In this document: piece by piece, positions 9,009 to 9,034 of the stretch
Layout: each line of letters starts with the position of its first letter
Position numbering within the stretch: position 1 is the stretch's first letter
Source: a virus
Lineage: Duplodnaviria > Heunggongvirae > Uroviricota > Caudoviricetes
Virus record (IMG/VR): IMGVR_UViG_2859810971_000005
DNA: 16,792 nt
Reading direction: 5' to 3' (one strand)
Program-made: the position numbers and the translations under genes
Notes under the pieces: generated by a model
What the model was told of the DNA's origin: nothing
Databases searched by the model: none
The model's input: only the letters and a program-made list of their open reading frames with translations

Positions 9009-9034
9009 GAACAACGTGGAACAACCACGAACAA
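9009..9034 (-). promoter_or_regulatory. three direct TTGTTC repeats at exact 10-bp phasing (minus-strand reading), about 175-240 bp upstream of the capsid start
   Basis: Plus strand reads GAACAA at 9009, 9019 and 9029; the same 15-mer AACAACGTGGAACAA recurs at 1580-1594. Confidence 0.5.

Follow-up and report, generated by a model that had tools for sequence, protein, structure and literature searches.

Published work identifies int, alpA and pri as the conserved genes of PICIs. In the classical PICI EcCICFT073, which has been studied experimentally, an unnamed helper-phage function turns on alpA transcription, AlpA activates its own promoter PalpA (positive autoregulation) and expression of AlpA alone leads to Int-dependent excision and replication, with a Pint fusion remaining unresponsive to AlpA (PMC6092414). 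In the cf-PICI family (EcCIEDL933 type), induction and transfer of EcCIEDL933 also require alpA (10.1101/2022.09.08.507074). Dependence on AlpA is known for the PICIs of Gram-negative bacteria, among them the capsid-forming type, which spreads across species. In the literature searched, no AlpA operator has been mapped, the identity of AlpA as an excisionase is left open and the switch-on of the cf-PICI capsid operon is not described.

A dual-purpose recombination directionality factor (RDF) working on helix-phased repeats is an established concept, although the literature searched contains no such map for PICIs. As a class, RDFs bind head-to-tail on direct repeats that lie one helical turn apart, at att sites and at promoters, and a number of them control promoters by way of similar arrays (PMC7498355). 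The nearest worked precedent is KplE1 (CPS-53), the site cores of which for its RDF TorI are GTTCG, GATCG and GTCCG (Panis et al. 2007/2010; PMC2951348). In the K-12 sequence, we find three TorI sites exactly 10 bp apart, pointing to intS and abutting its -35; these three overlap the intS promoter region, and further TorI sites lie nearer the core. KplE1 resembles the island described here in its small excisionase-type winged-helix RDF, its GTTCG-type cores spaced by 10 bp toward int, the position of int at the element end with inward transcription, and the placement of arm-type sites beside the RDF sites. It differs in that TorI sites have been described only at attL, with none reported on the other arm, upstream of the RDF gene or in front of a structural operon. 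TorI itself is distant from AlpA (26% identity over 42 aa, no PF05930 match, TM score of about 0.6 to the AlpA model). It is a repressor of intS; in EcCICFT073, by contrast, AlpA left the Pint fusion unaffected (PMC6092414).

The closest characterised AlpA homologue is Vis of phage P4 (both are PF05930 proteins), which has roles in excision and transcription according to the annotation of the P4 record, represses Pint and regulates the late promoters PLL and Psid. Like the island, P4 carries doubled 12-bp arm repeats on both att arms (TTGGGGGCAT), and in its P arm the interval that separates the core from the int-proximal arm repeats has TCC four times at 10-bp steps, once as TTGTCC; Cali et al. 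(2004) reportedly placed Vis boxes I and II between int and the core. The two elements differ in that the periodic core is GTCC/TCC in P4 but TTGTTC in the island, and no matching periodic array is seen alongside the P4 P' arm repeats. P4 has no capsid of its own and hence no counterpart of an array at a capsid operon, and the RNA-based immunity control of P4 is not evident here, an Rfam search of the DNA analysed having returned no match.

Phage 186 Apl and P2 Cox offer a further parallel, with direct repeats 10–11 bp apart (five at att and seven at the switch promoters), weak binding to single sites, high cooperativity, DNA bending and a link between excision and transcription (PMC7498355). 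However, Apl and Cox have no sequence relationship to AlpA and work as repressors at promoters that face each other, AlpA being reported as an activator (PMC6092414), and the arrays of the island, unlike theirs, are dispersed over four loci that include both att arms. The AlpA of Pseudomonas aeruginosa shares with PICI AlpA only its name and the use of a promoter-near DNA element that recruits the protein: it is larger and Q-like, reads DNA through residues 128–142, and acts as one molecule that reads a single 6-bp GGGACG between -35 and -10 and rides RNA polymerase (PMC9371919). An antitermination element of that kind was considered for the island and rejected, as the protein is unrelated in size and fold, its site is single and the island terminator lies upstream of the array rather than downstream.

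The window analysed here, a stretch of 16,792 nucleotides, opens at the start codon of phoQ (1–1461) and closes at the start codon of int; between the two lies a single mobile element transcribed from the minus strand, a cf-PICI related to EcCIEDL933 and EcCICFT073. Its gene order, which rests on the annotated Escherichia coli relatives L001 and L002 together with Pfam matches (obtained for int, alpA, pri and capsid), begins with int, alpA (15188–15000), degenerate icd-like genes, an IS1 insertion and DUF4222, continues with the gene for a D5-type primase (12249–10501), the replication origin and small genes, and ends with an HK97-type capsid gene followed by protease, portal, connectors, HNH, TerS and TerL. 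The int-alpA-pri module, the element's own HK97-type capsid and packaging genes, a length of about 15 kb and unidirectional transcription assign it to the cf-PICIs. The phoQ/roxA site is common to this island and EcCICFT073, and the same island family is also found at other chromosomal sites, for example tqsA and fis. The genes and the origin that bear on the argument are as follows.

15563–16792, minus strand: int, a P4-type tyrosine integrase with an N-terminal arm-binding domain (PF13356 and PF00589).
15000–15188, minus strand: alpA, encoding a 62-aa winged-helix protein (PF05930, E = 5e-18), the candidate binder of the arrays.
7637–8794, minus strand: major capsid gene (HK97-type, PF05065 match), the first gene downstream of the late array.
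10256–10490, no strand assigned: replication origin, directly 3' of pri, with an AT-rich stretch surrounded by GGTAGAYA iterons, at least 12 in number and present in both orientations.

The sequence-only reading of this DNA had proposed that helically phased repeats of the TTGTT type recur at four control points of the island. Three of the four hold; the fourth, in the early control region, does not, and a real fourth array upstream of int had been overlooked. The genuine sites are at 1580–1594, 9009–9034 and 15471–15515, together with one upstream of int that falls outside the window. The three arrays inside the window are listed here.

1579–1594, minus strand: P' arm array, two phased units (TTGTTC CACG TTGTTT on the minus strand).
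9009–9034, minus strand: late array in front of the capsid and packaging operon, with TTGTTC repeated exactly, three times, every 10 bp.
15471–15515, plus strand: int-alpA spacer array, four TTGTT units and one TTGTA at 10-bp spacing.

Upstream of the capsid gene, the minus strand has TTGTTC at 9009–9014, 9019–9024 and 9029–9034, in exact 10-bp steps and at the positions originally given. The 15-bp core that had been described as common to the capsid and phoQ-proximal sites is indeed the same sequence, AACAACGTGGAACAA, at 1580–1594 and 9010–9024. Between int and alpA, where five units of TTGTT(C/G/A) had been counted at 15471–15520, TTGTT is present on the plus strand at 15471, 15481, 15491 and 15501, but the fifth unit, at 15511, is TTGTA (within TTGTAT) and departs from the motif. 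The ACGTTGT element of the early region sits at 14203–14209, one base from where it had been placed. It is a lone heptamer with no phased partner, of a kind found 5 times against 2.6 expected and matched in 26 of 200 shuffles; as its frequency is that of chance, we do not retain it.

Whereas the lone hexamer TTGTTC is unenriched in the window (14 found against 11.1 expected), the phased pattern TTGTTSNNNNTTGTT has 6 matches where 0.03 are expected, a count reached in none of 200 shuffles; the signal therefore resides in the phasing. Tandem direct repeats about one helical turn apart, here in sets of two, three and five units, have the form expected of RDF operators. On the basis of this arrangement, its conservation and the family of the protein concerned, we consider it probable (about 0.72) that AlpA uses the phased TTGTTC/GTTC repeats as operator arrays, in excision, autoactivation of alpA and control of the capsid operon.

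Conservation was assessed in 69 IMG/VR loci with AlpA at least 90% identical to that of the window (allele 1), about 26 loci with Int 77–79% identical, 50 loci in which AlpA is a second allele, of about 64% identity, and distant islands reached through AlpA homologues (including L158, L161 and L200); an AlpA scan of genome contigs yielded 5 loci and a protein word search 19 proteins. The arrays are kept in more than 100 related islands. Their position, phase and orientation are preserved in allele-1 loci, EcCICFT073, about 30 allele-2 loci, L158, L161 and L200, and the four relative positions recur among relatives. Copy number changes by full 10-bp units, and the cores are retained although the intervening bases differ; in L200, a degenerate TTGYTT array stands beside the doubled motif described below. 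Across integrase clades, primase alleles and capsid lineages the arrays are constant. The puzzle raised earlier, that the arrays run opposite to their neighbouring genes, is real and conserved among relatives: the int-alpA spacer array is inverted with respect to the other three. We left out of the array count the TTGTTT-N4-TTGTTT matches of classical PICIs, which fall some 5 kb downstream of alpA, in an AT-rich region beyond pri.

The motif is also met outside this family. In an IMG/VR scan for three TTGTTC units, 24 of the 118 loci examined belong to the island family, and most of the others are arrays of unrelated phages near replication genes, probably iterons. Neither the island family nor the binder can therefore be recognised from the motif by itself. 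The same scan bears on the view that the arrays are replication elements, either iterons or P4 crr-like sites, bound by the P4 alpha-like primase/helicase: in those unrelated phages they lie beside or inside genes for primase, helicase or replisome organiser, the P4 type I iteron TGTTCACC resembles TTGTTC, and P4 requires two separated iteron clusters, ori and crr. We nevertheless regard this view as extremely improbable. The origin directly 3' of pri, the position of which agrees with the published organisation of Gram-negative PICI origins, has iterons of its own (GGTAGAYA) that differ with the pri allele, whereas the arrays ignore it, being unchanged where primase matches range from 40% to 100% identity, including loci where the match is only partial or at 40–60% identity. 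Two of the arrays are, moreover, fixed beside integrase arm sites, and the published EcCICFT073 pri-ori construct suggests that replication proceeds without any TTGTT array.

The arms themselves were delimited by comparing islands at two chromosomal sites, from which junctions and core blocks were derived; the two elements of the phoQ-proximal arm that accompany the array listed above are given below.

1460–1469, no strand assigned: att core identity block AAATATGTCC at the phoQ-proximal junction, on the attL side of the window.
1538–1561, minus strand: doubled 12-mer ATTGACTACACC ATTAACTACACC, reading GGTGTAGTTAAT GGTGTAGTCAAT on the minus strand; proposed integrase arm-type sites of the P' arm.

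In L001, the 10-mer AAATATGTCC is found at both island ends (3061 and 18202), and the tqsA island L002 has a different core block, TGCTGTTAT. Within the window, exact RACTACACC occurs solely in the doubled 12-mer of the P' arm; relatives carry a co-oriented 12-mer copy about 20 bp upstream of int. Each att arm thus holds a composite module of two TTRACTACACC copies and a phased TTGTT array 12–20 bp away, and the two modules are co-oriented. The P arm array, of three units, lies 64–89 bp upstream of the int start codon, just past the window end, and is seen in L001 (18094–18119), L002 and EcCICFT073 (L157, 7842–7866). The P' arm array has its counterpart at the far end of EcCICFT073 (19071–19085), and in islands with AlpA allele 2 the far-end array comprises three units adjoining the arm sites.

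The order of elements within the two modules differs with respect to the core. On the int-proximal arm, the array lies on the core side of the doubled 12-mer in L001, L002, EcCICFT073 and five further Int clades, that is, between the integrase arm-type sites and the core, as would be expected of an RDF operator. On the P' arm (window 1538–1594), the array is distal to the arm sites and outside the core-to-arm interval. Both the 1580–1594 array and the array upstream of int are more likely to be recombination-directionality sites than promoter control points.

The 12-mer varies with the Int clade, and at least five variants were seen. The variant GGTGTAGTTAAT accompanies Int proteins 95–100% and 86–87% identical to that of the window, GGTGTAGTCACT those 90–93% identical, TGTGTGGTCAGT those 66–67% identical and GKGCAGTCAGT an Int 55% identical (L161); the variant GTGTATTGCA, found with an Int 41% identical (L200), is the doubled motif published for helper-embedded PICIs (HE-PICIs; PMC10111431). 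The adjacent array retains its TTGTT/GTTC core from 100% down to 41% Int identity. As the 12-mer varies with the Int clade and the array is constant, the 12-mer behaves as an arm-type site and the array does not, and sequence comparison therefore predicts the doubled 12-mer, rather than the array, as the integrase arm site. The HE-PICI doubled motif (tgTGTATTGCa, twice) is likewise a 12-bp tandem, co-oriented on both arms, and its distances to the attP centre are about 81 and 132 bp (PMC10111431); those of the doubled 12-mer to the core are about 86 and 137 bp here. That study did not decide between Int and AlpA as the binder of its doubled motif, called the motif unique to HE-PICIs and contains no description of phased TTGTT arrays (PMC10111431). 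In the islands compared here, integrase clades of other PICIs have their own variants of the doubled motif, and the array stands apart from it as another element.

These observations weigh against the arrays being bound by Int, through its N-terminal Arm-DNA-binding domain, as arm-type sites of a second class, a proposal under which Int would, besides autoregulating, control both alpA and the late operon. Of the four arrays, two do lie in att arms next to int, arm-type sites elsewhere are tandem direct repeats, as annotated in P4, and P4 Int represses its own promoter. But the doubled 12-mer already suits the role of arm-type site, with two co-oriented copies per arm, four for a tetramer, in a geometry close to that of HE-PICIs, and, unlike the arrays, it covaries with Int. 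The arrays are also not confined to attP arms but occur 1.3 kb and 7.8 kb from att, where their positions are regulatory. We therefore give very little weight to Int as the binder of the arrays, and favour AlpA.

AlpA and P4 Vis share a PHROG (phrog_2790, labelled 'excisionase and transcriptional regulator') and are 47% identical over 53 aa. Its structure model (pLDDT 87) has as its best PDB match the GIsul2 excisionase (8c3t, TM score 0.83), and further matches are to other solved excisionases, namely RdfS, Pukovnik Xis and TorI. The element thus encodes a small winged-helix RDF candidate, as a set of RDF operators would call for, and in the relatives L001, L002 and EcCICFT073 no other excisionase-like gene is annotated. 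By family and fold, AlpA is a Vis/Xis-type winged-helix protein, and it probably acts both as a recombination directionality factor and as a regulator of transcription. The AlpA of EcCICFT073, which is identical to that of the window at 59 of 62 residues, comes from an island that also carries the arrays. That it activates PalpA and not Pint, yet alone triggers excision, fits an RDF with an autoregulatory operator.

The proteins common to all islands examined are Int, AlpA and a variable primase, and this bears on whether another phage or island product might be the binder. Under such a proposal, the helper-phage inducer of alpA, or a PerC-like or Icd-like protein of the island, would bind the arrays and couple the island to the helper cycle; alpA is turned on by a helper-phage function and has the spacer array upstream of it, and expression of the late operon needs to be timed with the helper. 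A helper factor would nevertheless leave the arrays beside the arm sites on both att arms unexplained, helpers are diverse (lambda, phi80 and HK106) while the motif is invariant, and the annotated relatives inspected share no island protein beyond Int, AlpA and the variable Pri. We consider a binder of this kind highly improbable.

A further candidate binder is a conserved host DNA-binding protein acting as an architectural factor, either a response regulator of the OmpR/PhoB family or a nucleoid protein. AlpA alleles 1 and 2 share about 64% identity, and islands with either one have an identical late array, so that no allele-specific covariation ties the motif to AlpA; a motif constant with both alleles would be expected equally from a conserved host factor, and constancy extends over Int, primase and capsid alleles as well. 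PhoP, ArcA and similar response regulators bind phased direct repeats containing TGTT, and the island adjoins phoPQ. However, searches with the PhoP box (KGTTTA-N5-KGTTTA) and the ArcA box (TGTTA), both of 11-bp periodicity, miss the arrays and return chance-level matches in the window, and these boxes were rejected; the arrays are spaced strictly at 10 bp, with two, three and five units. The presence of the same islands at tqsA and fis makes the phoQ neighbourhood incidental. P4, which shares the host and has a related Int, has a TCC core instead, a difference that better fits a binder encoded by the element, and expression of AlpA alone triggers excision (PMC6092414). Together, these points make a host factor very unlikely, and AlpA remains our preferred binder.

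We propose the following sequence of events for AlpA as the binder. A helper phage would switch on alpA, and AlpA would polymerise on the arrays, its monomers binding head-to-tail, one per helical turn, and bending the DNA. On the int-proximal arm, where the array separates the core from the Int arm sites, such bending would promote the excisive intasome and hence excision, with the second, shorter array at 1580–1594 accompanying the arm-type sites of the P' arm. The five-unit int-alpA spacer array is the likely target for positive autoregulation of alpA, and the late array may place the capsid and packaging operon under AlpA control. The idea put forward in the sequence-only reading, a single regulator binding cooperatively on one helical face with AlpA as the candidate, is the best-supported reading, with the roles of individual arrays partly revised; its suggestion that integrase expression is under the control of AlpA is contradicted in EcCICFT073 by the unresponsive Pint fusion.

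The spacer array begins 43 bp downstream of the int stop codon and about 280–330 bp upstream of the alpA start, a distance that is far for a simple activator site. It is present in nearly all of the 69 allele-1 loci, in two to five units, with its ACAA cores better conserved than the intervening bases, and in one locus a 10-bp unit has been inserted with the phase kept. Islands with AlpA allele 2 have three AATATC units in its place and a CGAAC array about 150 bp upstream of alpA; the inverted orientation is seen with both alleles. In the distant cf-PICI L161, palindromes and no array are found upstream of alpA. A conserved promoter that would account for the inversion was sought and none was found. 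One candidate, an AlpA-dependent antisense promoter past the spacer array, can be drawn in the window (CTGTTC-N16-CATACT), but spacers of the EcCICFT073 type lack the -10, and it is not supported.

The late array follows immediately on the terminator of the operon upstream.

9050–9075, minus strand: Rho-independent terminator (stem 9058–9075 and T tract) of the upstream operon, directly ahead of the late array.

An identical copy of 23 nt is found at 9417–9439. The block TGTAAATTAT-TTGTTCGTGG-TTGTTCCAsG-TTGTTC is kept ahead of three capsid lineages (61%, 71% and 97–100% protein identity), the leaders and terminators of which otherwise differ, although the terminator position is kept. EcCICFT073, an island without the HK97 module, has no late array. 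A consensus scan of 8700–9500 found no sigma-70 promoter. The terminator insulates the capsid and packaging operon from transcription arriving from upstream, and AlpA bound at the late array would turn the operon on. Reading the last unit of the late array as a -35 (TTGTTC-N16-TATTTT) fits capsid lineage 1 only, and was discarded.

A more far-reaching version, which we consider unlikely but worth setting out, is that this one 62-aa protein, polymerising on the same TTGTTC array at each of four loci, runs the whole satellite programme, as excisionase on both att arms, as activator of the capsid operon and, through the spacer array, as the agent that prevents re-integration. AlpA would then be the direct activator of the capsid and packaging operon, working at an array that adjoins a promoter lacking a recognisable -35, and the conserved, inverted five-unit spacer array at the 3' end of int would either fire antisense into int or loop with the P arm array across int, in either case shutting off re-integration after excision. 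If true, cf-PICIs would possess a self-contained late switch distinct from helper late control, and the role of AlpA would also be distinct from that of the Cox and Apl repressors of P2 and 186.

As candidate operators, the arrays supply a map of cis-elements, with the 12-mer for Int and phased arrays for AlpA at attP, alpA and the capsid operon. Such a map would account for AlpA-triggered excision without raised int transcription, and it predicts mutations that uncouple excision, autoactivation and capsid production. It may be of use both for satellite biology and for engineered PICI-based delivery particles; to specialists, it would be a sensible extension of a known device rather than a surprise.

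The copy of the island in the window is damaged, carrying a nonsense codon in the capsid gene in addition to the IS1 insertion. The in-frame stop, at 7967–7969, corresponds to a change of TGG to TGA relative to L001 and L002. Proteins identical to its Int, AlpA and primase are encoded in a Shigella flexneri genome.

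The late array, three TTGTTC units at 10-bp spacing on the minus strand ahead of the capsid operon (9009-9034), lies in a neighbourhood with several further elements on either side:

9054-9076 and 9417-9439, minus strand: two identical 23-nt copies of a rho-independent terminator
8885-8932, in the leader from the late array to the capsid start: 17-bp inverted repeat, 94% complementary, with a 14-nt loop

The terminator copies enclose a 100-aa open reading frame (9095-9397) that has no Pfam match, and together the three look like an accessory cassette inserted directly ahead of the late array. 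The inverted repeat has no T tract and is therefore not an obvious terminator; among the three groups of capsid proteins encoded downstream of the late array, it is kept in lineage 1 and missing from lineages 2 and 3. Within the major capsid gene itself, a TGG-to-TGA nonsense change is present at 7967-7969 (minus strand) compared with the annotated E. coli relatives L001 and L002, and this copy of the island is probably incapable of making its own capsids.

The island also carries an insertion and, directly 3′ of the primase gene, the replication origin:

12768-13535 (within 12759-13544): IS1 copy, bounded by terminal inverted repeats of 23 nt and containing an InsB-like open reading frame (PF03400)
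10256-10490, iterons in both orientations: replication origin, with at least 12 GGTAGAYA iterons around an AT-rich stretch

A 9-bp target duplication, ATTGTTTCG, borders the IS1 copy on either side. Relative L004, from S. flexneri, encodes an integrase, AlpA and primase identical to those of the window, and its alpA–pri interval is about 777 bp shorter, such that IS1 appears, from this spacing, to be absent there. Between IS1 and alpA (13600-14950), the open reading frames of the window are all overlapping and implausible; icd-like genes occupy this position in relatives and, in several genomes, themselves carry frameshifts or truncations. The early region looks degenerate in the window copy of the island.

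In islands with the second AlpA allele (L132, L149 and L151), the position of the five-unit array of the window, in the int–alpA spacer, is occupied by three AATATC units at 10-bp spacing, located around 60-100 bp past the int stop codon (for example, L132 1290-1320), and phased AATATC was found nowhere else within these three islands. Where the integrase belongs to the 66-67% clade (L205, L206, L207 and L211), an extra gene separates int from alpA, and a hairpin followed by a T run, CCCTCGTTCGGTTACGTTCGAGGGTGTTTTT, lies directly 5′ of alpA (for example, L206 about 2880-2915), with two GTTCG units 11 bp apart inside the hairpin.

Phage P4 (L003) has four TCC units at exact 10-bp spacing (CGTCC, CTTCC, TGTCC and AATCC; about 3966-4010, minus strand) in the interval separating the int-proximal doubled arm repeats from the att core. 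These units, which carry no annotation in the P4 record, may match the known boxes of the AlpA homologue Vis.

Arrays of four TTGTTCC units plus one inverted copy also occur in unrelated high-GC viral contigs (L218, L220, L222, L229, L231, L237 and L243). In L218, the contig whose open reading frames were read, the array (9576-9625) begins 13 bp beyond the end of a 777-aa frame, as long as the P4 alpha primase/helicase, and is thus likely to be an origin or crr-like iteron set. In other contigs, similar arrays lie within or beside helicase or replisome-organiser genes.
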